Positions 6,401 to 58,527 of a DNA stretch of 64,000 bases are shown in pieces (within the stretch, counting starts at the first letter, position 1; every line of letters starts with the position of its first letter). The translations under genes and the position numbers were made by a program. This DNA comes from Candidatus Poribacteria bacterium (lineage in GTDB: Bacteria > Poribacteria > WGA-4E > WGA-3G): assembly GCA_022822085.1 (NCBI GenBank), contig JAJECK010000005.1, positions 6,048 to 70,047 of the forward strand. The letters are read 5' to 3'. The notes beneath the pieces are model-generated. The model was not told where the DNA came from and did not search any database. It saw nothing but the letters and a program-made list of their open reading frames with translations.

Positions 6401-7758
6401 TATTGATATACCCTCGCAATCATAAGAACATCCACATTTATTTTATTTTCTTTGTGGTCAACGGAAATTTGTAGATCTCTTACCATCAACCATTTGCTTG
6501 TGGTTTCGATTATCTTGTTTAAGTTGACAAGTTTATCGATTTCCGCTTTAAACTTCATTTTTACGGTATAACTTTCTGGTGTATAGGCAACAGGTGCTAC
6601 CTGTAATTTTTGGATAAGTTCCTCAATTTGAGATTGAACCATATCCATGTATTTAAGGAAATCAACTCTGAGTTGTTGCTTATCTAACTCTTCCCCATAA
6701 GTGTCAATAAGATTTGTGAATTTTGCAAGAATATCACTATTTGGTCGAAAGTTAATCTCAGTCGTAGGTTTTCTTGCCCCGAGCCCAAAGAACCCGGCAG
6801 TTGCTCGCGTTTCTGTTTTAAAAAAGTGATTTTCAAAAAGTGCTTTCTCAGCACCAACAAGATGCTGGTCTATCAGTGGTAAAATGAGTTCAATAAGTTC
6901 TATCCTAATTGAAATCGGTATAGAATCCGGCAATGATACAAACTTCCACTCGATTGTATCCTCCACTGCGTTATCAGAATCAATATGATTATTGCCAGAT
7001 TCTTCGGAAGGTTCTGGGTGTTCATCCTTATCACTTTCAACATCGGAAGGTTCTGGGTTTTCATCCTCATCACTTTCAACATCGGAAGGTTTTTCTGGTG
7101 TCCTCTCTTCTTTGTCGTCAGTTTTTTCTTCTTTTTCTTCCTTATATGTTTTATCGTCAGATTTTTCAGTTTCTTTAGAGTTTTCGGGTTCTACATCTGC
7201 TTCACCTAACCATGCATCCATAAACATATCCATAGCGTCAGCATCAGCATCAATTTCTACTTGTGCTTGTGCTTGTGCTTGCAGTTCTGCTTCAATTGCT
7301 GCATTGAGTGCGTCCTTCTCAGCGTTCAATTTTTCCTGATAGGAGAACACAACAAGATTTCGTCGTGCCTGTTGTGAGATTCTCTCAGATTTCTTGCCGG
7401 GAACAACTTCGTAATTTATTTGGTAATTATTAGGTATTCCAGCTCTTTTTACAATTTCAGCCACTTTTTTACGCACAACCGAGGCAGGATAATTTCCATC
7501 AAACATAGTGGCAGTTTCGCCCTCGCCTGCAATTCCAGTTTTTTGGTATAGACCTGCTTCATTAGTTTTCAAGATTTTAGATGCAGTTACTAAATCTTCT
7601 GACGTTTTTAAAGTTTCTCTCTTAGTTTTCATTTTGGGATTTGAGACAATCTTATAGAAACTTGGTCCCCATTGTGTTGCTAAGGCTGCAATCAGTGCAA
7701 CAACCAGAATTCCGAGCAAAATTTTAGTTTGGTTTGTAAGTTCAAAATCTAATTTCAC
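6400..7758 (-). CDS. Bitopic inner-membrane protein at the GspM/N position of the T2SS operon, with a coiled-coil and an acidic PEPSDVESD repeat linker
   Basis: One N-terminal TM helix (ILLGILVVALIAALA). QAQAQAQ coiled-coil. 45-bp coding tandem repeats at about 7008-7097 that encode PEPSDVESDEDENPEPSDVESDKDEHPEPSEE. Location between the gspL-like gene and the secretin. The specific family is not recognisable from sequence alone. Confidence 0.4.
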   Translation of the reverse strand: MKLDFELTNQTKILLGILVVALIAALATQWGPSFYKIVSNPKMKTKRETLKTSEDLVTASKILKTNEAGLYQKTGIAGEGETATMFDGNYPASVVRKKVAEIVKRAGIPNNYQINYEVVPGKKSERISQQARRNLVVFSYQEKLNAEKDALNAAIEAELQAQAQAQVEIDADADAMDMFMDAWLGEADVEPENSKETEKSDDKTYKEEKEEKTDDKEERTPEKPSDVESDEDENPEPSDVESDKDEHPEPSEESGNNHIDSDNAVEDTIEWKFVSLPDSIPISIRIELIELILPLIDQHLVGAEKALFENHFFKTETRATAGFFGLGARKPTTEINFRPNSDILAKFTNLIDTYGEELDKQQLRVDFLKYMDMVQSQIEELIQKLQVAPVAYTPESYTVKMKFKAEIDKLVNLNKIIETTSKWLMVRDLQISVDHKENKINVDVLMIARVYQ

Positions 7759-40973: not shown

Positions 40974-41002
40974 CGTAAACCAAACTAAGGCGGAGGTTAA
41001 TG

Positions 41003-42349
41003 ATGGAAAAAGACGATGTTCAACTTATTCACCAAATATTATCTGGTAATGGCACTGCATTTAATACTTTATTCCAAAAATACCAAAAGAGTATTCACGC
41101 TATCGCCTGGCAAAAAATCGGGGATTATCACGTTGCGGAAGAGATCACCCAAGATGTCTTTCTACAAGCATATAACAAACTGTCCACGCTGAAAGACCCG
41201 AACAAGTTCTCCAGATGGATTTACATAATTGCAAAGCGACGTTGTGCTAACTGGAATCAACGTGAAAAAACTACTATGCAATCCTTGGAAGCCACTGATG
41301 AAGCTATCTTGGAGAAATCCGCTTATGCAAACTATGTCGCTGAACAGCGCGAAAAGGCTGCAACAGAACACCGCCGAGAAGTTGTTGATATGCTTCTGGA
41401 AAAATTACCAGAACGTGAACGGCAAGTAATTACACTTTATTACCTTGGTGAAATGACATCCGAAGCGATAAGTAATTTTCTTGGGGTGTCTGTCAACACG
41501 ATAAAAAGCCGTCTTAGAAGGGCACGCCAACGTCTGCAGGAGGAAGAACTTATACAAGAAACTCCTGGGAACATCCAACCACCTGCTAACTTATTCAAAC
41601 ATAGAGATAATGTGAGTATCTCTTCTCAAAACACCAATAATAACCAAAATATAAGGAGTAAATCAGTGAGCGAAAGAAAAGAAATCACTACCTATCCATT
41701 CATAGTTGAATGCTACGAGCAACCCAAATGTAGAGGGAAAAAAGTAACTATTCTTCAAACGACTGAGAACCTACAGGATAGTCTGGATCGTGTTGGGTTT
41801 GAAGACAGTATCGCGTCTGTGCGGATAGTTAAAGGTCCAGGCTGTCCACGAGAAGGCGGGGAAGTTACATTTTATGAAAACCCCAATTTTTCAGGTGTTA
41901 CCTTACCATGTGACTTGGGACCGGAAATAATAGTGTCAGAGATACCTGATTATAAGGCTCAAATTTTATCAATTAAGATAGATGTGAATCTGTCTACACA
42001 GAATAGCGATGAAGGACAACATAGAAAGGCCGAAAACAAGGAAATCGGTATCTATCCATTTTTCGTTGAATGTTTTGAAGAACCCAAATTTAGGGGGAAA
42101 AAAGTAGTCATCATTCAAACTAATGAGAATCTTCACGAAAGCCTGGAACGGTCTGGGTTTGAAGACCGTATATCTTCTATGCGGATATACAAAGGCACTG
42201 ATTGTCCACCTGATGGCGGAGAAGTTGTGTTTTATGAAAAACCCAATTTTACAGGACACTTTTTACCTATCAACATGGAACCGAAATCATTAATGAAAGA
42301 GATACCTGAATTTAATAGGACAATTCTCTCAATTAAGATGGAATGTTGA
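41003..42349 (+). CDS. ECF (group 4) sigma factor with a C-terminal extension of two beta/gamma-crystallin-like domains
   Basis: Sigma-2 region HAIAWQKIGDYHVAEEITQDVFLQAY. Sigma-4 region LPERERQVITLYYLGEMTSEAISNFLGVSVNTIKSRLRRAR. Two Greek-key domains (YPFIVECYEQPKCRGKKVTI...FEDSIASVRIVKG...VTFYENPNFSG; YPFFVECFEEPKFRGKKVVI...FEDRISSMRIYKG...VVFYEKPNFTG). GGAGG SD 6 nt upstream of the ATG at 41003. Confidence 0.8.
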   Translation: MEKDDVQLIHQILSGNGTAFNTLFQKYQKSIHAIAWQKIGDYHVAEEITQDVFLQAYNKLSTLKDPNKFSRWIYIIAKRRCANWNQREKTTMQSLEATDEAILEKSAYANYVAEQREKAATEHRREVVDMLLEKLPERERQVITLYYLGEMTSEAISNFLGVSVNTIKSRLRRARQRLQEEELIQETPGNIQPPANLFKHRDNVSISSQNTNNNQNIRSKSVSERKEITTYPFIVECYEQPKCRGKKVTILQTTENLQDSLDRVGFEDSIASVRIVKGPGCPREGGEVTFYENPNFSGVTLPCDLGPEIIVSEIPDYKAQILSIKIDVNLSTQNSDEGQHRKAENKEIGIYPFFVECFEEPKFRGKKVVIIQTNENLHESLERSGFEDRISSMRIYKGTDCPPDGGEVVFYEKPNFTGHFLPINMEPKSLMKEIPEFNRTILSIKMEC

Positions 42350-45910: not shown

Positions 45911-46369
45911 TCAATCTGCAGCCTCAGCGAGTTCCAATAAAATAGGTGATTCTACGCGGATAGCATCTTTGATGCACACCTCTTCACATAGCAAACAACC
46001 GACACAATCCTTCGGTTTCACAAGTTCACAGATACCAAAGAAACTATCAGCCTGTTCATTTGACACGGGGTCAATGATTTCGAGGCACTCCCACGGACAG
46101 ATTTGCACACAGAAATCACATCCGGAACAGAGTTCCTCATAGATTACGGCTTTGGGACGATGCATACGAACAGGAATAAATTTACACACATTGCCGAACT
46201 GGTCACGGATTGCTTCCACTGGACACACCATGCCACATGCACTGCAATCAATGCACACATCTGGGTCAATAATGTGCATCTTGTTTCGATCACCAGTAAT
46301 CGCATCAACAGGACATTTATCTAAACACTGTATACACCCGATGCATTCCTCAGTAATAAAATATGCCAT
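45911..46369 (-). CDS. Poly-ferredoxin-like protein (multiple 4Fe-4S CxxCxxCxxxCP motifs)
   Basis: CIGCIQCLDKCP, CIDCSACGMVCP, CSGCDFCVQICP and CVGCLLCEEVC motifs. Start taken at the internal MAYFITEE to avoid overlapping the neighbouring gene. Confidence 0.7.
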   Translation of the reverse strand: MAYFITEECIGCIQCLDKCPVDAITGDRNKMHIIDPDVCIDCSACGMVCPVEAIRDQFGNVCKFIPVRMHRPKAVIYEELCSGCDFCVQICPWECLEIIDPVSNEQADSFFGICELVKPKDCVGCLLCEEVCIKDAIRVESPILLELAEAAD

Positions 46370-46392
46370 AATAGTTACCTCAATTTTATTTA

Positions 46393-48783
46393 TCACAGTC
46401 CAAGATGGATAGCAACAAGTTCTTCCAATTGCGCATTCCATTCTTCAGGTGAATGCACTTCTCTATTACGTGACATTATAACCTTTCCTTCTTTATCAAT
46501 CAACACAATTGCTGGATACGTTCGTCCTGCACCAATACCAAATTGCCGCGCCAATGGACCATCCCAGTGACCACCATCATAAATATGTCGTCCAATTACT
46601 TTTTCCTTACGGACATAATCCCGCAATTGGTCTTCGTCACTATACATCATAACACTGACTCCAATAACCTCAAAACCATTTTGGTGATATTTTTGGTATA
46701 CTGCTTCCAAATCATCCAGTACTTGATTCGGAAATCCCAGATAGAGCAGGGTAACTTTCCCTTGGAATGTTGCTGGGGATATAGGATTTCCATCAATATC
46801 AATCGATGTGAAATCTGATATTACCCTACCAATCCGTGTGGCTTCTGTCCTATTTAGGTTTTGTCCAAGTAGAAACTGTCTATTCATAACAGAAATTATT
46901 GTGCCATCACGATCAATGAGCCACTGGGATGGCAGCCTGTTAATACCAAAGAATTCTGCAGGGCCGCCCTCAATACCACTATTCTCAAAAACCTGGACCC
47001 ATGGAATATCATGTTCCTCAATATACTTGCGCAGATCTTTTTCCTCTTCGTCAACACTAATGCGGATGACTTCAAATCCGTTCTTGTGATGTTCTTCGTA
47101 GACCTCTTTGACATAAGGTATTTCACCTGTGCAGGGACCGCACCACCATGCACAAAAATGGAGCAAAACTAATTTACCGTGGTAGTCAGAAAAAGATATT
47201 TGAGTGCCATCAAGTGTTGTTGCTGAAAAATCGGGTAGTTGCAGACCTTCCCACGCGGGTTGTGCCCACCGATATTCTGAATGTGGTTCCCATGGATATT
47301 TACTTGCTAATTCAGTTTCACCTAACGTTTCATAAATATCACCGAGACCGCGTAAAGAATACCAGTCGTCAGGTTCTTCTTCAAGTCGTTGTTCAAAGAT
47401 ATATTTGGCTTGATGAATTAAGGTTTTGCTCCTTGCAAGCAGTTCAGTGTTTCCTTCGGGATTTCTCATCAGTTTACGATAGATATGGCAAGGAGTTTTT
47501 CCGTATTCTGAATAAACTCTTGTAAGCCAATGATACAATCCGTATTCATCTTGTCGCTGTGCTCTTTCAAACAGTTTCTCAAGTGCTGGGAGCACCAGTT
47601 CAAATAGAATATTTTCATTTTGGTTGAAAGGGTTATCATCACGACTAATTGCATAAAAACATATTTCCGCGTCATTCGGCAACAAATCAATTGCTTGTTC
47701 AAGGAATGGGTATTCTTTATCTTCAACAATAAATGCTAATAACTTTGCTGCAGTCCCGTTGTTCGGCTGCATTTCAAGTACCTCTTCAGCGAATTCTCGT
47801 AGTTCCATACGCAAATATTTTGGAAACCGTGGAATGTACTCTGATAGATCCGCTGGCAACTTCGCCTGTCCATCAACAACACCTACTTCAATCCGCGTCT
47901 TGAAATACGTCAGAAGTTGTTTCTGAAGTTTGAGGGAGAATTCCCATCTGCTACTCGACAATTCACGGTCATCAAGCGCATTGAGATAAGTCTCCCAAAA
48001 ATCAACCTTTTCGGTAGTTGGATCTCCAAAGTCCTGTTGTTCACCTATTTCTTGAAGTAACTCTTTTTGAAACGCCGCAATTTCATTGTAGAAGGCGGTT
48101 CTACATCTGTTAATCAACGCGTTACACTTTTCAATTAGATATCTCCGTTCATTCTGATCTTCTGGTCTTTCAGGGTTATCCTTAAGTTCCTGAAGCTTTT
48201 TCTTTGCCTTTTTATATACTGAACCTGGACTTCTACCGATTCTATTGTAAGTAGACTTCGCATCTTGATACCGATCAGTTGCTCCTTCTTGTTTTGCCCA
48301 TTCAAATAGATTTTCAAGCGCAGTGAGAAATCTCTCCTGGTAATCATCACCTTGTCTGATTACACCAGAGTTTCTATGGTATTTGTGAATGAAGATTATA
48401 TTCGCACAAGGATCTTTTGGTACTAATTTCATCAATGTTTTTATATATGACCAATGGTCAGAGTTATTCTCAGCATCTGCCACAATTGTCAAAATTATAG
48501 TTGCAGCAGCATTTTCTGGATCTGTAGCGAGACAATCTCCTGCTAATGCCCGAAGTTTTGATAGCATTTCCTTCGGAAAACGCCAAAAGTAATCTTGAAA
48601 ACCAGGGGCAAGTGTAGTTACGCCATCAACAACATCTTCTCCAATCTTTTCTTTGATATATGCAAGGAATTGTTCCTGCGTCTCCTCGTCCATCTCCAAT
48701 TCACCTGTGCCTGCTGCATGTCCAAAGTCATATTGTGAATTGAGGAATGTATACCAGAAATCTGCGGAAGTGTATTTATCCAT
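46393..48783 (-). CDS. Large protein with no signal peptide: duplicated alpha-helical N-region (2 x about 230 aa), one redox-active TlpA-like thioredoxin domain (WCGPC) and one degenerate thioredoxin-like domain
   Basis: Internal repeat DFWYTFLNS...ELEMDEETQEQFLAYIKEKI versus DFWETYLNA...KQLLTYFKTRIEVGVVDG. LPDFSATTLDGTQISFSDYHGKLVLLHFCAWWCGPCTGEIPYV is an active thioredoxin fold. Second domain LPDFTSIDIDGNPI...GKVTLLYLGFPNQ has no Cys. SD AGGAGAA. Confidence 0.7.
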   Translation of the reverse strand: MDKYTSADFWYTFLNSQYDFGHAAGTGELEMDEETQEQFLAYIKEKIGEDVVDGVTTLAPGFQDYFWRFPKEMLSKLRALAGDCLATDPENAAATIILTIVADAENNSDHWSYIKTLMKLVPKDPCANIIFIHKYHRNSGVIRQGDDYQERFLTALENLFEWAKQEGATDRYQDAKSTYNRIGRSPGSVYKKAKKKLQELKDNPERPEDQNERRYLIEKCNALINRCRTAFYNEIAAFQKELLQEIGEQQDFGDPTTEKVDFWETYLNALDDRELSSSRWEFSLKLQKQLLTYFKTRIEVGVVDGQAKLPADLSEYIPRFPKYLRMELREFAEEVLEMQPNNGTAAKLLAFIVEDKEYPFLEQAIDLLPNDAEICFYAISRDDNPFNQNENILFELVLPALEKLFERAQRQDEYGLYHWLTRVYSEYGKTPCHIYRKLMRNPEGNTELLARSKTLIHQAKYIFEQRLEEEPDDWYSLRGLGDIYETLGETELASKYPWEPHSEYRWAQPAWEGLQLPDFSATTLDGTQISFSDYHGKLVLLHFCAWWCGPCTGEIPYVKEVYEEHHKNGFEVIRISVDEEEKDLRKYIEEHDIPWVQVFENSGIEGGPAEFFGINRLPSQWLIDRDGTIISVMNRQFLLGQNLNRTEATRIGRVISDFTSIDIDGNPISPATFQGKVTLLYLGFPNQVLDDLEAVYQKYHQNGFEVIGVSVMMYSDEDQLRDYVRKEKVIGRHIYDGGHWDGPLARQFGIGAGRTYPAIVLIDKEGKVIMSRNREVHSPEEWNAQLEELVAIHLGL

Positions 48784-48865
48784 TATAATTCTCCTATTTT
48801 CGTTTGTAATTCAGTCCGTAGATAGAAACTGGAACAAATGATTTCTGTGAATGTTTAATGGTTTT

Positions 48866-51352
48866 TTATAGAATTTCAGTAACAAGTTCATCCAGTCTTG
48901 CCCCCCAAGTTTCAACTGAATGTACTTTTCCATATCGTGCATCAATCACCTTTCCAGCAGGATCAATGAGTATAAAAGCAGGAAGTGTAACTTTTCGGGT
49001 GTTATCACTCCAACCGAATCCGAACAACTCACCCACTGCAGCATGATCTCCATCATGATCCGCATAGATATAGTGTCCTTGATGGTTTTCTCTGCGTACG
49101 ATGTCACGCAATACCTCTTCATCTCTCCATCCACCAACGTTGAAACCTACAACCTCAAATCCATTTTTGTGATGTTTTGTGTATAGTTTGTCAATGTGTT
49201 CAAGTTCTGGTTCTTGGCGAATGTAACCAAAATGGAGAAGGGCAACTTTGCCTCGTAATGTAGCGTTGGAAACAGAATTTCCATCTACATCAACTGTAGT
49301 AAAATCTGGAAGCATGTTGCCTATACGTGTAGCTTCTGTCCACTTCACCAGTTGACTAAGCTGTTCGCTTCTTGTCCCAACAGAAAGAATCTTTCCATCT
49401 CTGTCAATGAACCACTGTGATGGAACACTTAATATTCCGAAAAACTGTGCAAGTTCAGCTTTCCATCTTTTTCCATCGTAAACTTGCAGCCACGGTATTT
49501 CATGTTCCTTAGTAAATTCGTGCAATTCTGCTTCATTCTCATCCAAACTGATCCCTATAACTTCCAGTCCTTTGTCATGATATTCTTCATAGACTTTTTT
49601 GAGATGGGGAATTTCTGGGGCACAGAAACCGCACCATTTCGCACACCAATTTAGCACCAACAATTTTCCGTTGAAATCAGAGACTGATATAGGTGTGCTA
49701 TCAACAGCAACAGCAGAAAAATCAGGAAGTTGTTTCCCTACCCATGCTTCCTGTTTCCATCTGTTTTCAGCATGTGGTTTCCATGGATGTTTTTGCGCTA
49801 ATTCGGTTTCACCTAACACTTCATAGACATCACCGAGTCCGCGTAAAGCGTACCAATCGTCCGGTTCATCTGAAAGCCGTTGTTGGAATGCATGGAGCAT
49901 GTGGTCTATCAAGGGTTTAACCCTATTAATCAGTTCAGCATTTGCATCAGGATTGTTCAACAAATTCCTATAAATATGACACGGTGTTTTGCCTACTTCT
50001 TTGTACAGTTTTGCCAACCATTGATACAATTCAGGATCATTATGCAACAGCGACCTTGCAAACAGTCGTTCAAGTGCAGTGACTGTGAGAATAAGCATCG
50101 GATCATAATATTCATCATATTTTCTAAGAGCAAAATAGCACGTTTCCGTATCTTTGGGTGCCAAATTCATCGCTTGTTCAAGTAAGATTAGGTCTCTGTC
50201 CGATTCTCCATATCTGACATTCTTACTTTCCCACACAATGATTGCTATTATCTTAGCCGCAGCCCCGTTATCAGGTTGGGTTTCAAGCATTTCTTCCGCA
50301 AATTCACGGAGTTCCAGATGCATCGCTTCAGGAAAATCAGGGACGTAATCTTGTAGATTTGCAGGCAAGGTTGTATTTCTGTCAATAACACCTGCTTCAA
50401 TCTTCGTTTTAAGGTATTCTAAAAGATGTTCTTGGTCATTCTGTGTGAGTCTTCTTGGCGGTGCATTCTTATGGTTTTCATTCGACTTTAGAAACGCCTC
50501 CCATATATCTGTACTATCGGAAGTTGAATCAACTAAATCTTGTTGTTCTTCTGAATGTTGTCCAAAATTTTTCCGAAATGCAGCATTTTCCATAGGAATC
50601 AAATCTCTACATTTCTTAATTAGTGTTTTATATCTTTCAACTTCTGGATTGTTTTCTTTAGAGATTGCTGAATCGTCAAGAAGTTCCTGGAACTGCCGAA
50701 GGTTATCTTTGAGTTGTCTATAAACTTTATAAGGGGTTACCCTATGCTGTCGATAGAATGAACGTGCTTCTTGATAACGTGCTGAATCTTCCTGTCGTTT
50801 TGCCCACGCGTAAAAGTTTTCAAGTACCCGAAGGACTTTTACTTCTTGCTCAATGTCATCCCCAAAAAAGTGATCCATTCTGTATTGGTCTATCACTACC
50901 AAATTCATACACGGATCATTCGGTATTGGTCCCCTTCTATCATCTATATGTGGGTCGTTTTCAGCATCCCAGTCTGAGATTTCCACAAGTGTGCGAAGTA
51001 AGGCTGCTACCCCATTTTTCGGATCAGATTTTAAATAAGTATCCGTTAACTCCCGTGTTTTGGGTAACATTTCTAATGGAAACCGCCAAAAGTAATTGTG
51101 AAGCCCCGGAGGAAGTGTAGTTTCACCATCTGTTATCCCTTCCTCAATTTTTTCTTTTAGATAAGCAAGGAATTTGTCCTGCATCTCTTCGTCCATCTCC
51201 AATTCACCTCTTCCATAAGAGAGCCCTTCATTATAGAGTGAATTGATAAAGGTATACCAGAAATCTGTGGAATTGTACATATTTTTCACCATTGCCTCCG
51301 ATGTATGTAATAACTTATTGATAGTATCGCGTATTTTAGGTTTAGTTGCCAA
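48866..51352 (-). CDS. Paralog of the upstream large thioredoxin-domain protein (same architecture, about 45-50% identity)
   Basis: STDFWYTFINSLYNEG...ELEMDEEMQDKFLAYLKEKIEEG. LPDFSAVAVDSTPISVSDFNGKLLVLNWCAKWCGFCAPEIPHL is the active CxxC. Second domain GKVALLHFGYIRQEP is degenerate. The start is uncertain: TTG at 51352, or ATG at 51292 or 51280. Confidence 0.65.
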   Translation of the reverse strand: MATKPKIRDTINKLLHTSEAMVKNMYNSTDFWYTFINSLYNEGLSYGRGELEMDEEMQDKFLAYLKEKIEEGITDGETTLPPGLHNYFWRFPLEMLPKTRELTDTYLKSDPKNGVAALLRTLVEISDWDAENDPHIDDRRGPIPNDPCMNLVVIDQYRMDHFFGDDIEQEVKVLRVLENFYAWAKRQEDSARYQEARSFYRQHRVTPYKVYRQLKDNLRQFQELLDDSAISKENNPEVERYKTLIKKCRDLIPMENAAFRKNFGQHSEEQQDLVDSTSDSTDIWEAFLKSNENHKNAPPRRLTQNDQEHLLEYLKTKIEAGVIDRNTTLPANLQDYVPDFPEAMHLELREFAEEMLETQPDNGAAAKIIAIIVWESKNVRYGESDRDLILLEQAMNLAPKDTETCYFALRKYDEYYDPMLILTVTALERLFARSLLHNDPELYQWLAKLYKEVGKTPCHIYRNLLNNPDANAELINRVKPLIDHMLHAFQQRLSDEPDDWYALRGLGDVYEVLGETELAQKHPWKPHAENRWKQEAWVGKQLPDFSAVAVDSTPISVSDFNGKLLVLNWCAKWCGFCAPEIPHLKKVYEEYHDKGLEVIGISLDENEAELHEFTKEHEIPWLQVYDGKRWKAELAQFFGILSVPSQWFIDRDGKILSVGTRSEQLSQLVKWTEATRIGNMLPDFTTVDVDGNSVSNATLRGKVALLHFGYIRQEPELEHIDKLYTKHHKNGFEVVGFNVGGWRDEEVLRDIVRRENHQGHYIYADHDGDHAAVGELFGFGWSDNTRKVTLPAFILIDPAGKVIDARYGKVHSVETWGARLDELVTEIL

Positions 51353-51452: not shown

Positions 51453-51956
51453 TTACTTGAGAAATTGTTGCGAACTCATTTTCAGCTTAATCTCTTTTCC
51501 GTTATCGTCTAATATAACCTGCTTAGGTTTTATTTCTTTGACACTGACTTTGCCGAACGTTTCACCTACTTTAACAGTCCTCATTTGTTTTGATCTTCGT
51601 TCCAGGATAATTGCCTCAGAATAGGCATTATTAGGATCACTTGTCGTACCAATGAGCGTATATTCTGGTTCTTTTTTGGGCGGTCTCCATCCCAGTGGAC
51701 GAAAGATATTGTTGTCAACGATTACCTTGAAGTAATCATCAGGACTTTTACTGTCTGTATTTGTGCTTTTCTTTTGATGGGGTTTGACAACATCAATCTT
51801 TACAGGTTTTTCCTTGACAGGATATCCCACATCAGCGTTAAGTTTATTTGTGGTATGTCTATAAATAAACGCACTTATTGTGAATATGAACACAATGACG
51901 CAACCTGAGATGAAAACACTTTTTATGGACATGGCTTTTAAAACCTTCCTTATCAA
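51453..51956 (-). CDS. Membrane-anchored GspC/PilP-like protein (HR-domain-like C-terminus); orphan T2SS accessory candidate
   Basis: N-terminal TM helix. NIFRP motif. C-terminal EYTLIGTTSDPNNAYSEAIILERRSKQMRTVKVGETFGKVSVKEIKPKQVILDDNGKEIKLKM matches the GspC-HR/PilP beta-sandwich pattern (Y.L.G....AII....VGD.I..I....V.L..NG....L). Confidence 0.45.
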   Translation of the reverse strand: MIRKVLKAMSIKSVFISGCVIVFIFTISAFIYRHTTNKLNADVGYPVKEKPVKIDVVKPHQKKSTNTDSKSPDDYFKVIVDNNIFRPLGWRPPKKEPEYTLIGTTSDPNNAYSEAIILERRSKQMRTVKVGETFGKVSVKEIKPKQVILDDNGKEIKLKMSSQQFLK

Positions 51957-54156: not shown

Positions 54157-54894
54157 CTATTGCTGAGATGTTTCATCTAAGGTTTTACCCTCAGTTGATG
54201 CTAACTTTTTCTTACGTTCCGATGGTGGGACATAATACGAAACTACTTTCATGCCGTTCCGTCTGCACTCTTCTTGAACCTGTCTCAAATGTGCTGAGAG
54301 TTCTTCCAAAGAATCAAATTTGGCGTTGAATTCTTCTTTTATACGATAGCATTCTTCAAGGATAGGATCCGTGTAATTTTCAAATTCTTTTTCTTTCATT
54401 TGAAATTCCCTCATTAATTCTGTTGGTGTGCAAATGGTTATAGGTGAAAAACCTGCATTTCTACAAACTTGGTTTATATGTTCTCGTTTGTATTCATTTA
54501 CAATATGTTTTTGGTTCCATGATACAAGATATTCAACACCGTGTGTTGTCGCAATGGCAATATGTTGTGCATCCGATCGAGAACTTTTTGGTACGGCTCC
54601 AGCATCTAACAGTTTCTGTGCTAACATAACAGCTTCAGGTAAAACTTCTAATACTGTTAGATGTGATAACACATTAAGTCGCCGCTGGACTACGTTTGCA
54701 TCACCTTGTCTTGCCTCAGTAAAAACTATAGGTGAAACGACATAAGTAAATTCATCCGTATAGTCTTCCCAAAGCTGCTGTGTTATCTGTTGCCAAGATG
54801 TTAACTTTACATTGCTGCTTGGCCGAGCTACCAAATAACTGATAACCGTCGTTTCAAGATAGACTCTTGGTTTGCTTTCTATATAGTATAGCAT
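54157..54894 (-). CDS. PIN-domain protein with an approximately 80-aa charged C-terminal extension
   Basis: VYLETTVISYL (the beta1 acidic position is Glu). SDAQHIAIATTHGVEYLVSWNQKH matches the PIN DxxHxA...T.D block. No adjacent antitoxin ORF. Confidence 0.45.
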   Translation of the reverse strand: MLYYIESKPRVYLETTVISYLVARPSSNVKLTSWQQITQQLWEDYTDEFTYVVSPIVFTEARQGDANVVQRRLNVLSHLTVLEVLPEAVMLAQKLLDAGAVPKSSRSDAQHIAIATTHGVEYLVSWNQKHIVNEYKREHINQVCRNAGFSPITICTPTELMREFQMKEKEFENYTDPILEECYRIKEEFNAKFDSLEELSAHLRQVQEECRRNGMKVVSYYVPPSERKKKLASTEGKTLDETSQQ

Positions 54895-55309: not shown

Positions 55310-56797
55310 TTATAGATAAGTTACCGATCTTTGAATCCGCTTCAAAACTTCATCTCTACCAAGCAGCACAACAATATCAAAGAGACTTGGACCAAACGAT
55401 AATCCTGTCAACGCAATCCGCATCGCCTGCATGGCTGCGACGCGTTTGATGTCGTTTTCATCCGTATATTTCCAAACAGCAGCTTCAACGGTTTCAAGGT
55501 CAAACGTTGAGATGTCTTCCAATATTTGTCCGAGATTAGTAAGAATTTCTCGGGTTTTCTGCTTCTTCTCGTCTGAACCACCCCACCATTTCTTTACTGC
55601 TTTAGGCTCATACTCAAAATCATCGGTAAAGAAATAACGGGTCTGCGGGAGGATGTTTTGTAAGGTTGTCAACCGTTCACCAACTGCTTCAACAATCTTT
55701 TCAAGCCAGTCGCGATTTGTGTCGGAATCTACCAAGCCTTCCTGTTCCCAGAAAGGCATCACTGCATCTGTGCGTGCAGAAACATCCAACTGATTGATAT
55801 AATGTGAGTTGAGCCATTCCAACTTCTTAATATCAAACACGCTACCACTTTTGCCAACCCGATCAAGGTCAAATTTCTCTATCAGTTCATCAACTGAGAA
55901 AATCTCTTGCTTATCGTCGTAAGACCAACCGAGTCTGGCAACAAAGTTCAGCATCGCTTCGGGGAGGTATCCTTGTTCACGGTAGCGGTTCACCGCGACA
56001 AGGTCGCCGTGATGTCTTTTGCTAAGTTTACTACCTGTATCGTCAAGTACAAGTGGAATGTGTGCAAATTGAGGAATGTTTAAACCGAGAGCATTGGCAA
56101 TTGCAATTTGCTTCGGTGTGTTATTGAGATGTTCTGTTCCACGGATAACGTGCGTTATCTGCATTTCTGCATCGTCTATAATAGAGGTGAGATTATAGTT
56201 CGGCATACCGTTAGAACGGACAATTACTTCATCTTCAAGTGTAGCGGGGTCAATGGTCCGTGTACCGAGAATAAGGTCATCAACACGGATAGGTGCATCA
56301 GGCATTTTGATGCGGACGGTCGGTTTTCTTCCATCTACGAGAAAACCTTCAATCTTTTCTTGTGTGAGTTCACGACACCGTCCGTCGTAAGAGCGAGTAG
56401 ATTTAGCAGCGCGTGCTGCTGTGCGTATTTCTTCTAACTCATCAGGGGTACAATAGCAACGGTATGCATTGCCACTCTCAAGTAGTTGCGTAATATATTT
56501 TTCATAAATACTCTTGCGTTCAGATTGAACATAAGGACCGTAGGGACCCCCTATATCACCGCCTTCGTCCCATTCCAATCCCAACCATTTCAGAGCGGAA
56601 TAAATCTCTTGCATAGATTCATCAGTGGAACGTGCAGTATCAGTATCATCAATCCGGAGTATAAATGTTCCTTCGTGGTGTTTAGCAAACAACCAATTAA
56701 ACAGTGCTGTCCTGGCACCTCCGATATGCAAGAAACCGGTGGGAGAAGGAGCCATACGGACTCTGACTTGGTTATACGGAATAGGTGTCTCGCTCAT
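55310..56797 (-). CDS. gltX: Glutamyl-tRNA synthetase
   Basis: HIGH motif [20 protein letters not shown] variant KLSKR. The start is taken at the internal Met, which gives a 4-nt overlap with the glnS stop. Confidence 0.9.
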
Positions 56798-58527
56798 TTC
56801 TGTCCTTTCTGAATTTTTGCCCAACTATCCCGCAGTGCAACTGTCCGATTGAAGACCAATTTTTCGGGTGTTGTGTCTGGGTCAACACAAAAATATCCTA
56901 TTCGTAAGAACTGATATCGACTTTCAGGTGGTGCATCAACAAGACTCGGTTCGACTTTGCAATGATTTAGAATTTCTAAAGAGTCTGGATTGAGAAATTC
57001 AATCCAATCTGTACCATCCGATGTGTTTTCAGGTTCACGTTCTGTAAAAAGAGTGTCGTATAAACGCACCTCAGCATCAACAGCGTGTTCAGCAGAAACC
57101 CAGTGCAATGTGCCTTGCACCCGCCGTCCATCTTCCGCCCAACCGCCTCGCGTCTCTGGATCATAAGTGCAATGAATTGCAATAATTTCGCTAGTGTTTT
57201 CATCTTTAACAACGCGATTGCATGTGATGTAGTATGCGTGCTTGAGTCGCACTTCGCGCCCAGGAGCAAGTCTATAGAATTTCTTGGGAGGGTCCTCCAT
57301 AAAATCATCACGTTCAATATAGATTTCTTTTGAGAATGGAATTTCTCTTGAACCAGCATTTTCATCTTCAGGATTATTATCAGCATCAAGCATCTCTACC
57401 TGTTTCTCTGGGTAATTATCTATGATCACCTTGACAGGGTTTAGTACACCCATAACACGCGGAGCATTACGGTTCAGATCGTTGCGTATTGAATATTCAA
57501 GTTGACCAATTTCTATAAGATTATCAGCTTTCGACACACCGATTCGATTGCAGAAGTCTCGAATTGATTCGGGAGTATACCCCCGACGCCGCATTCCAGA
57601 AAGTGTCGGTAACCTTGGATCGTCCCATCCATTGACGGATCCACCTTCAACAAGCATTTTTAGTTTCCGTTTGCCGAGGACTGTATAGGTGAGATTTAGA
57701 CGTGCAAATTCGATCTGCCGAGGTGGGTAAATTTCCAACGCCTCCAAAAACCAGTCGTATAGAGGACGATGATCTTCAAATTGGACATCACATAGGGAAT
57801 GCGTTACCCCTTCAATGGAATCAGATTGTCCGTGCGTGAAATCATACGTAGGATAGATACACCAATTCGTTCCGTGTCTGTAGTGAGGTGCACGAAGCAC
57901 TCGATACATCACAGGGTCGCGCATATTTAGGTTCGGACTTGTCATGTCAATTTTGGCACGGAGTGTGCGTGAACCATCTGGGAATTCCCCATCACGCATG
58001 CCATGAAACAAGGTGCGATTTTCCTCAACTGAACGGTTTCGGTATGGACTATCTTTGCCCGGGGTGACTAACGTCCCCCGATAATCGCGCATTTCGTCTG
58101 GTGTAAGATCGCAGACATAAGCCATCTCTTTCTCAATCAGTTTGACAGCGTACTCATAGAGGGTTTCAAAATAGTCAGATGCGTAGAATTCACGATCTTC
58201 CCAATCAAATCCAAGCCAATTCACATCGCGTTTGATTGCTTCTACAAATTCATGTTCTTCCGTTATAGGATTGCTGTCGTCAAAACGAAGGTTATAAAGT
58301 CCATTATAATCTTCTGCAATCCCAAAACTTATGCAGATGGCTTTAGCATGTCCAATATGGAGGTATCCACTCGGTTCTGGGGGAAATCTGGTATGCACCC
58401 TGCCATCGAACCTATTGGAAGTTATATCTTCCTCTATTGCTTGTCGGATAAAATTTGTGTCAGAGGTGTTGTTATCGTTCTCTGATGGACTTTTAGTTCT
58501 TTTTGAGTTGTACACTGGATGATTCAT
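56794..58527 (-). CDS. glnS: Glutaminyl-tRNA synthetase
   Basis: [20 protein letters not shown] region. GlnRS-type anticodon-binding beta-barrel C-terminus. 577 aa. Confidence 0.85.

Follow-up and report, generated by a model that had tools for sequence, protein, structure and literature searches.

A Poribacteria-specific family of TPR-redoxin fusion proteins, predicted to be cytoplasmic, encoded beside a ferredoxin gene that is probably a bystander

INTRODUCTION

A 64,000-nucleotide (nt) stretch of a Candidatus Poribacteria genome (contig JAJECK010000005.1, positions 6,048 to 70,047; referred to here as the window) carries two tandem paralogous genes for proteins of about 800 amino acids (aa), designated A and B, followed on the same strand by a gene for a 152-aa ferredoxin. 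What kind of proteins are A and B, where in the cell do they work, and do the three genes act together? A reading of the locus from its sequence alone, called the sequence-only reading below, had proposed an electron-transfer module and, with it, an undescribed cytoplasmic redox system. We find that A and B do represent an uncharacterised and, by the evidence of their sequences, cytoplasmic family. The family is, however, a Poribacteria-specific variant of known fusions between tetratricopeptide repeats (TPRs) and TlpA-type redoxin domains and not a categorically new system, and the apparent ferredoxin module mostly reflects a gene order that closely related genomes have inherited. By analogy with known proteins, A and B may be cytoplasmic, scaffolded protein-disulfide reductases or isomerases, or redox chaperones, a reading that we prefer with confidence that reaches about the halfway mark.

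RESULTS

A and B are tandem paralogs with a shared four-part architecture

Open reading frame (ORF) calling places three genes on the minus strand of the window, in the order A, B, ferredoxin. The genes and the domains of A and B are as follows, where Trx1 and Trx2 denote the first and second thioredoxin folds and cis-Pro the conserved cis-proline.

48866..51289, minus strand: gene A, the upstream paralog; 807 aa, GTG start at 51289, active site WCGFC
50543..51289, minus strand: A helical unit 1; internal repeat (E = 4e-18), 41% identical to B unit 1
49763..50542, minus strand: A helical unit 2 plus terminal TPR; internal repeat, weak Pfam TPR_17 match
49355..49762, minus strand: A Trx1, ResA/TlpA type; Pfam AhpC-TSA (4e-33), C570-x3-C574-G-F-C577 at nt 49622..49645
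48869..49354, minus strand: A Trx2, cysteine-less with cis-Pro kept; second Pfam stretch, Trx1 versus Trx2 E = 6e-16
46393..48783, minus strand: gene B, the downstream paralog; 796 aa, ATG start with an AGGAG site, active site WCGPC
48049..48783, minus strand: B helical unit 1 (residues 1-245); internal repeat (E = 1e-22), structure models
47269..48048, minus strand: B helical unit 2 plus terminal TPR (residues 246-505); conserved C375 and C432, sub-cut-off TPR_19/TPR_17 matches
46864..47268, minus strand: B Trx1 (residues 506-640); C544-x3-C548-G-P-C551 at nt 47131..47154, cis-Pro P618
46396..46863, minus strand: B Trx2, a pseudo-redoxin fold (residues 641-796); GFPNQ replaces WCxxC, cis-Pro P757
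45911..46369, minus strand: 152-aa ferredoxin; four CxxCxxCxxxC motifs in two di-cluster domains, 23 nt downstream of B, convergent with purA

The longest ORF of gene A (48866..51352) would encode 828 aa from a TTG at 51352. The GTG at 51289 is most likely the true start because GGAGG lies 5 nt upstream and because orthologs of 807 aa occur at two other loci (L004 and L033; loci and database proteins carry our L and P numbers). The longest ferredoxin ORF (45911..46441) would overlap B; the ATG at 46369, which is preceded by GAGG and gives the 152 aa recorded in public databases, is most likely the start, placing the gene 23 nt past the B stop codon with no overlap. B is identical to database protein P0001. 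A and B share 46% identity from end to end (41 to 55% by segment), in agreement with the earlier description of them as tandem paralogs.

The B N-terminal region (N-region), used to query a word index of 5.8 billion proteins, returned 132 matches, 120 of which were listed; the length is 760 to 830 aa in 108 of these 120 family members. Both proteins are built from two helical units of about 245 aa followed by two thioredoxin folds.

Both proteins lack export signals

Neither A nor B has a signal peptide or transmembrane segment; on the Kyte-Doolittle scale no 19-residue window exceeds 1.2. In-frame stop codons lie 9 codons upstream of the B ATG and 10 codons upstream of the earliest possible start of A, so a longer N terminus with a signal peptide is excluded for both. 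The predicted N terminus is also the common one, since about 115 of the 120 listed family members begin with M..KYDSTDFWYTF. The absence of an export signal, which had been noted from the letters of the window, thus survives correction of the start codons, and on this evidence (hydropathy, upstream stops, and a conserved N terminus) A and B would be cytoplasmic proteins. The ferredoxin sequence opens directly with its first cluster motif.

Genes of the kind that usually accompany extracytoplasmic TlpA-like proteins were looked for as well. No cytochrome c maturation or CcdA/DsbD gene lies beside A and B in the window, and no ccdA, dsbD, or ccm (cytochrome c maturation) gene appears in the Pfam lists of neighbors at seven family loci (among them L001 to L004, L055, and L056).

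One thioredoxin fold keeps a CxxC active site, and the second is conserved without one

The Pfam models AhpC-TSA, Redoxin, and Thioredoxin_8 each match two stretches per protein, with Redoxin and AhpC-TSA scoring well above their cut-offs. In the full-length AlphaFold2 model (predicted local distance difference test score [pLDDT] of 86.6, predicted TM-score [pTM] of 0.80), both thioredoxin folds are confident. Foldseek searches of the PDB with this model retrieved DsbE, ResA, and TlpA-like chains (target TM-scores of 0.76 to 0.86 and root mean square deviations of 1.4 to 2.1 Å); for fold 1, the superposition on DsbE and ResA has a target TM-score of about 0.8 and a deviation of 1.4 to 2.0 Å. 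The PDB sequence search was led by ResA (2e-18) and cytoplasmic tryparedoxins. All scores against curated NCBIfam equivalogs fall far below the cut-offs (ResA, 98.1 against 170; TlpA, 62.5 against 230; DsbE, 32.2 against 123; StoA, 41.7 against 210), and therefore neither A nor B is an ortholog of ResA, TlpA, or CcmG.

The family signature of fold 1 is F-C-A-K-W-C-G-F-C, with Phe where Pro is usual; the two window proteins read F-C-A-K/W-W-C-G-F/P-C. WCGPC had been assigned to both proteins. This holds for B; A carries WCGFC, as do most members of the family. The CxxC cysteines are nearly invariant (C548 in 98% and C551 in 100% of family members), as is cis-Pro P618, found in 64 of 64 aligned members.

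Other readings of the Pfam matches, as peroxiredoxin, glutathione peroxidase, or SCO1, were rejected, since the catalytic motifs are absent. Peroxiredoxins carry PxxxT/SxxC around the peroxidatic Cys, and glutathione peroxidases carry FPCNQF and WNF. The active-site context here, LL(N/H)FCA(K/W)WCG(F/P)C, has no Pro at −7 and no Thr or Ser at −3, and the NCBIfam scores against peroxiredoxin equivalogs are far under their cut-offs.

Fold 2 had been described as a thioredoxin fold without cysteines, and this was found to be a family trait: the active-site cysteines are absent in all 64 aligned members, with G-[FY]-[PS]..[EQ] in place of WCxxC, while the cis-Pro and about 20 other positions are conserved. 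Within one protein, Trx1 and Trx2 are similar to each other (E = 6e-18 in B, with the value for A listed above). These comparisons indicate that fold 2 arose by internal duplication of fold 1 and that it lost its cysteines before the family diversified.

The N-region is a predicted TPR-like solenoid built from a duplicated unit

BLASTP of residues 1-250 against residues 251-520 gives about 30% identity at the E values listed for unit 1 of each protein, so the duplication of the N-terminal half that had been read from the sequence stands. Each unit opens with a family-specific head of about 70 residues, consisting of an amphipathic DFWYTF helix, a long helix, a G-V-x-D-G-x-T-x-LP beta hairpin, and then Y..RFP. 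TPR-like helix pairs follow the head.

The N-region had been said to match nothing recognisable. In one respect this is correct, as no curated Pfam or NCBIfam model covers most of it. The sole TPR match in B (residues 458-495) scores 18 to 22 bits, below the Pfam gathering cut-offs of 24 to 25; TPR_17 is matched in 11 of 13 family members, with a best E value of 1.4e-6. Relatedness to TPRs is nevertheless suggested by structure prediction and indicated by remote homologs, and here the earlier statement does not hold. The AlphaFold2 model of residues 1-505 (pLDDT of 80, pTM of 0.76) is nearly all helix with one small beta hairpin per unit. Among PDB structures, Foldseek ranks TPR or TPR-like helical-repeat proteins highest for this model (Ctr9, SPY, OGT, SKI3, IFIT5, subunits of the APC, and consensus TPR designs), with probabilities near 1 and E values of about 1e-3 but low TM-scores of ≤0.28. 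An N-region profile searched against PDB sequences found designed TPR proteins only, at positions 448-493, which supports the terminal TPR alone. Three distant proteins found by profile search (P0131, P0139, and P0166) align to profile positions 273-499, in unit 2, and carry canonical TPRs in this stretch (Pfam TPR_1, TPR_2, TPR_19, and TPR_CcmH_CycH above cut-off). We consider the N-region a diverged TPR-like solenoid with a family-specific head because the modeled solenoid has its best, though low-scoring, PDB matches among TPR proteins, the last repeat retains a weak TPR match, and remote homologs carry canonical TPRs.

Poribacteria express microcompartments (PMC5087111), and the DFWYTF helix with its linker was considered as an encapsulation peptide. 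This candidate was rejected because the helix is found again inside the proteins, where unit 2 begins, as well as in relatives with a single unit, and thus belongs to the repeat unit.

The family is confined to Poribacteria and appears to descend from secreted TPR-TlpA fusions

Every named protein among the listed word-index matches belongs to Candidatus Poribacteria. A scan of one genome per species (185,579 species) gave 50 loci, whose titled records are all from Poribacteria except one labeled "uncultured bacterium." Searching 1.84 billion cluster representatives exhaustively with an HMMER profile yielded only 48 matches: one full-length representative, several fragments, a few single-unit relatives of 416 to 471 aa, the three distant proteins named above, and a remainder of generic TPR matches at positions 448-493. 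The inactive fold alone, searched against the 5.8-billion-protein index, returned two fragments and missed its parent family, a result that reflects the limit of a word index and is uninformative. By these sequence searches the family is restricted to Candidatus Poribacteria and multicopy. NCBI labels the orthologs "TlpA disulfide reductase family protein," and a literature search on Poribacteria, thioredoxin, and TPR found nothing about the A/B family.

The distant relatives P0131, P0139, and P0166 carry a redoxin fold of the FWATWCGPC/FWASW type after their TPRs; P0131 keeps FWATWCGPC, as does a further relative, P0122. Signal peptides are clear in P0122, P0139, and P0166. The family therefore appears, from these relatives, to descend from secreted TPR-TlpA fusion proteins.

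Family genes evolve fast under purifying selection

Ratios of nonsynonymous to synonymous substitution rates (dN/dS) were calculated for window genes against their five closest orthologs. Trx1 is the most constrained segment (0.11 to 0.16), followed by helical unit 2 (0.15 to 0.23), helical unit 1 (0.18 to 0.34), and the cysteine-less Trx2 (0.18 to 0.38; 0.18 to 0.29 for B), while PurA and the ferredoxin both stand at about 0.05. These ratios indicate that both paralogs and all their domains, the inactive fold included, are functional and under purifying selection, although far less constrained than housekeeping genes. Compared with the window, family proteins are 49 to 81% identical in genomes where PurA is 87 to 95%, ribosomal protein S9 92 to 99%, and the ferredoxin 86 to 95% identical.

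Genomes hold one to three tandem copies plus lone copies. Arrays at L028 and L048 contain fragmented or frameshifted copies (ORFs of 80 to 640 aa that match the N-region). Ongoing gain and decay of family copies is suggested. The Trx1 segment of B (46864..47268) has a synonymous divergence of about 1.1 from four of the five closest orthologs, against about 0.45 in the rest of B, and database protein P0002 is mosaic, with an A-like N terminus and a WCGFC Trx1 in a sequence that otherwise resembles B for the most part. We take these as signs of gene conversion between paralogs.

The ferredoxin is separable from the family genes

The sequence-only reading was accurate about the gene itself, a four-cluster ferredoxin on the same strand just downstream of B. 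Pfam finds four Fer4 and four Fer4_21 stretches in it, and NCBIfam assigns it to no specific equivalog, with only the iron-sulfur (Fe-S) domain of the RnfB model matching. To judge its relationship to A and B, we surveyed 51 loci that carry a full-length family gene; 28 of these share the convergent arrangement with purA-rpsI-rplM seen in the window, and 23 lie elsewhere.

Across these loci the genes did not behave as a fixed unit. At least nine purA-adjacent loci with ample downstream sequence have a family gene and no 152-aa ferredoxin, and 22 of the 23 family loci away from purA lack a ferredoxin. Conversely, at two further loci (L057 and L058, in each at 7001-7459) the same ferredoxin, within 90% identity, lies next to purA, and no family gene is present within 7 kb. 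There it is preceded by a giant TPR/Laminin_G protein (about 3,000 aa or more) instead, so the adjacency of ferredoxin and purA is independent of the family genes. Pfam searches of the window genes between 45911 and 53844, and of the orthologous clusters, gave no family for a ferredoxin:thioredoxin-reductase-like coupling enzyme or a flavoenzyme.

Little weight can be put on shared gene order here because the genomes under comparison are closely related, as the PurA identities show. The adjacency to purA, which has no functional meaning, is equally conserved, and therefore such an order is expected from ancestry alone. From these comparisons we conclude that family genes were inserted and duplicated in front of the ferredoxin, a housekeeping-type gene that evolves slowly and is anchored to purA. 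In the present genome the ferredoxin is probably cotranscribed with B. It is nonetheless probably a bystander rather than a partner, and a functional partnership is not required to account for its position.

Other genes at the window and at related loci

Immediately upstream of A, between it and a gene for a pyridoxal phosphate-dependent decarboxylase, lies a gene (51453..51956, minus strand) whose small product has a membrane anchor and, at the C terminus, a domain resembling GspC (T2SSC; Pfam 29 bits, cut-off 27). This arrangement is kept only in the sub-clade of the window (L004 to L006, L008, and L033), and on that ground the gene was rejected as an export partner of A and B.

In other Poribacteria, family genes follow a conserved cluster (for example, L001:21-7966, L003:4726-7536, L056:3919-6792, and similar loci) composed of an extracytoplasmic function (ECF) sigma factor, two paralogous proteins of about 240 aa without a Pfam match, and two or three FdxA-type ferredoxins of 87 to 92 aa. 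A giant protein of 1,250 to 1,390 aa (ECF sigma factor, membrane span, and WD40 repeats) and a 243-aa uncharacterised protein are also present at 14 loci. The genes of this cluster are all absent from the 64-kb window, where tblastn detected neither the FdxA-type ferredoxins nor the ~240-aa proteins.

Four further features of the window lie outside the A-B-ferredoxin cluster.

41000..42349, plus strand: unusual ECF sigma factor fused to Beta/Gamma-crystallin domains (Pfam Crystall 46 bits, cut-off 25), with orthologs at L004, L005, and L008
42394..43056, plus strand: 220-aa protein with a membrane span and a crystallin-like C-terminal segment nearly identical to that of the preceding sigma fusion
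54157..54894, minus strand, upstream of the cluster: 245-aa protein with a weak PIN domain
55310..56824 and 56794..58527, both minus strand: adjacent GltX-like and GlnRS-type class I tRNA synthetase genes, overlapping by about 30 nt

DISCUSSION

Under the reading that we prefer, each protein would stay in the cytoplasm, where the TPR-like solenoid and the inactive fold could provide binding surfaces for clients or partners. The single CxxC would carry out thiol-disulfide exchange on the bound client, and a general cytoplasmic thiol system would recycle the enzyme. Several observations weigh against this proposal. A third cysteine (C544, 90% conserved) takes the place of the customary Trp, four residues ahead of the CxxC, and the helical region has conserved cysteines of its own (C227 in 95%, C375 in 99%, and C432 in 100% of members, plus position 452 in 83%, which is Ser in B and Val in A). 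Judged by this conservation, a simple disulfide reductase does not explain the extra cysteines. The assignment of the modeled N-region to TPR-like folds is weakened by the low TM-scores and the sub-threshold Pfam matches. Ferredoxin genes are also frequent around the family: the 152-aa ferredoxin lies 9 to 29 nt downstream of the last family gene at 17 of the 28 purA-adjacent loci, one to three small FdxA-type ferredoxins precede the family genes on their strand at 17 of the 28, and 26 of the 28 have one type or the other on the strand of the family genes, which leaves some room for a redox link between the family and ferredoxins. Fast evolution, copy-number variation, and mosaicism would fit a role in host interaction as well. 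Finally, the catalytic activity, the binding of clients by the TPR-like region or the inactive fold, the reductant, and the physiological role are what we infer.

The frequency of ferredoxin genes invites an alternative in which a four-cluster or FdxA-type ferredoxin feeds electrons to the CxxC of A and B, making them ferredoxin-dependent disulfide reductases within a cytoplasmic module. The short intergenic distances, in the window and in 17 other genomes, and the third cysteine beside the CxxC would suit such a module, but we consider it unlikely. The two gene types occur without each other, as L057 and L058 and the loci lacking the ferredoxin show; the genomes are close relatives in which a meaningless neighbor is retained just as well; and there is no sign of coevolution between a ferredoxin with a dN/dS of about 0.05 and a family that diverges so much faster. 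The clusters also encode no coupling protein of the ferredoxin:thioredoxin reductase (FTR) kind, and no one-electron ferredoxin is known to reduce a thioredoxin disulfide unless an Fe-S or flavin enzyme of that kind takes part. The extra cysteines point to a related idea, in which C-x3-C-x2-C, possibly together with C227, C375, C432, and C452, binds an Fe-S cluster beside the redox-active pair and the protein is a metallo-redox protein derived from a TlpA-type fold. Such a protein could be reduced directly by the adjacent ferredoxins, which would make it a functional analog of FTR in one polypeptide, or could be an Fe-S sensor or a repair factor for those ferredoxins. Of all the explanations weighed here, this is the one to which we give the least credence.

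Two further alternatives concern where and on what the proteins act. A and B might be extracytoplasmic TlpA-like oxidoreductases acting on envelope proteins, like their relatives with signal peptides, and reaching the envelope by nonclassical export or appearing cytoplasmic through a miscalled start. The closest solved structures and named families (ResA, TlpA, and DsbE) are periplasmic, three of the relatives carry signal peptides, and a small GspC-like membrane protein is encoded just upstream in the sub-clade of the window. The in-frame stops and the conserved, nonhydrophobic N terminus nevertheless make this very improbable; moreover, most other family loci do not have the GspC-like gene, no ccdA, dsbD, or ccm gene is nearby, and a cytoplasmic protein of the same Pfam family, tryparedoxin, is among the best PDB matches. 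A fast-evolving, expanding repeat family of the "eukaryote-like protein" type found in sponge symbionts, used mainly in protein-protein interactions with host or envelope-stress pathways under ECF sigma control and with redoxin chemistry as a secondary matter, would account for the divergence, the tandem, lone, and frameshifted copies, and the mosaic paralogs that indicate gene conversion. The giant ECF sigma/membrane span/WD40 fusion lies directly upstream of the family genes at 14 loci, and a 200-aa ECF sigma factor does so at others. Against it, the CxxC and cis-Pro are nearly invariant in what is the most constrained segment, dN/dS stays below 0.4 in every segment with no sign of gene-wide positive selection, and the proteins carry no export signal with which to reach a host. 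We regard this explanation, too, as unlikely.

If the cytoplasmic reductase or redox-chaperone reading is right, Poribacteria would possess a lineage-specific, multicopy cytoplasmic redox chaperone made by reuse of a periplasmic TPR-TlpA design, in which the signal peptide was lost, the scaffold was duplicated, and the redoxin fold was duplicated and its copy inactivated. It would be a clear case of an envelope oxidoreductase moved into the cytoplasm and may bear on how Poribacteria living as sponge symbionts cope with oxidative stress.

Comparison with known systems

As in FTR systems, a ferredoxin gene adjoins a thioredoxin-fold gene in the window; the cluster differs from them in having no FTR-type catalytic subunit or flavoenzyme and in the separability of its ferredoxin and family genes. 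Protein disulfide isomerase (PDI) pairs a redox-active thioredoxin fold with an inactive one that could bind substrate (the a and b' domains), and the protein disulfide oxidoreductases of archaea and thermophiles contain two thioredoxin folds. The tandem of an active and a conserved inactive fold in A and B is architecturally analogous to PDI a-b', whose logic the proposed mode of action would share, and the WCGFC of A resembles the WCGHC of PDI in having Gly followed by an aromatic residue or His. There is no homology to PDI beyond the fold (19 bits against a cut-off of 107 for NCBIfam pdi_dom).

The best sequence and structure matches of A and B are TlpA, ResA, and CcmG (DsbE; PF08534 Redoxin, PF00578 AhpC-TSA, and PF13905 Thioredoxin_8), with which they have the thioredoxin fold, the CxxC, and the cis-Pro in common. 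In contrast to those proteins, A and B lack a signal peptide, lipobox, or membrane anchor; their active-site context is F-C-A-K-W-C-G-F-C rather than F-W-A-T-W-C-x-P-C; their fold is fused to about 500 aa of helical repeats and to an inactive second fold; and cytochrome c maturation or CcdA/DsbD genes are not found near them. Further known relatives are the secreted TPR-redoxin fusions (P0122, P0131, P0139, and P0166), a kind labeled "peroxiredoxin/tetratricopeptide (TPR) repeat protein" by JGI. They are homologous to A and B over unit 2, the terminal TPRs, and the redoxin fold, with one helical unit instead of two and no inactive second fold, and are likely, on this homology, the ancestors of the family.

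For the way A and B work, the closest analogy may instead be found among cytoplasmic proteins that combine a thioredoxin domain with TPRs. Plant TDX, with a thioredoxin domain plus a TPR domain, is one such protein. Another is CnoX/YbbN, a chaperedoxin in which client holding is coupled to thiol redox (PMC8129009, PMC6282202, and PMC10998233). A and B do not belong to these families, since no YbbN/CnoX chain is among the PDB sequence matches of the whole protein or of the N-region profile, and the domain order is reversed, CnoX having an N-terminal thioredoxin and C-terminal TPRs. Relative to both CnoX and TDX, A and B carry a redoxin of the ResA/TlpA type in place of a classical thioredoxin, a far larger helical region, and an added pseudo-redoxin domain.

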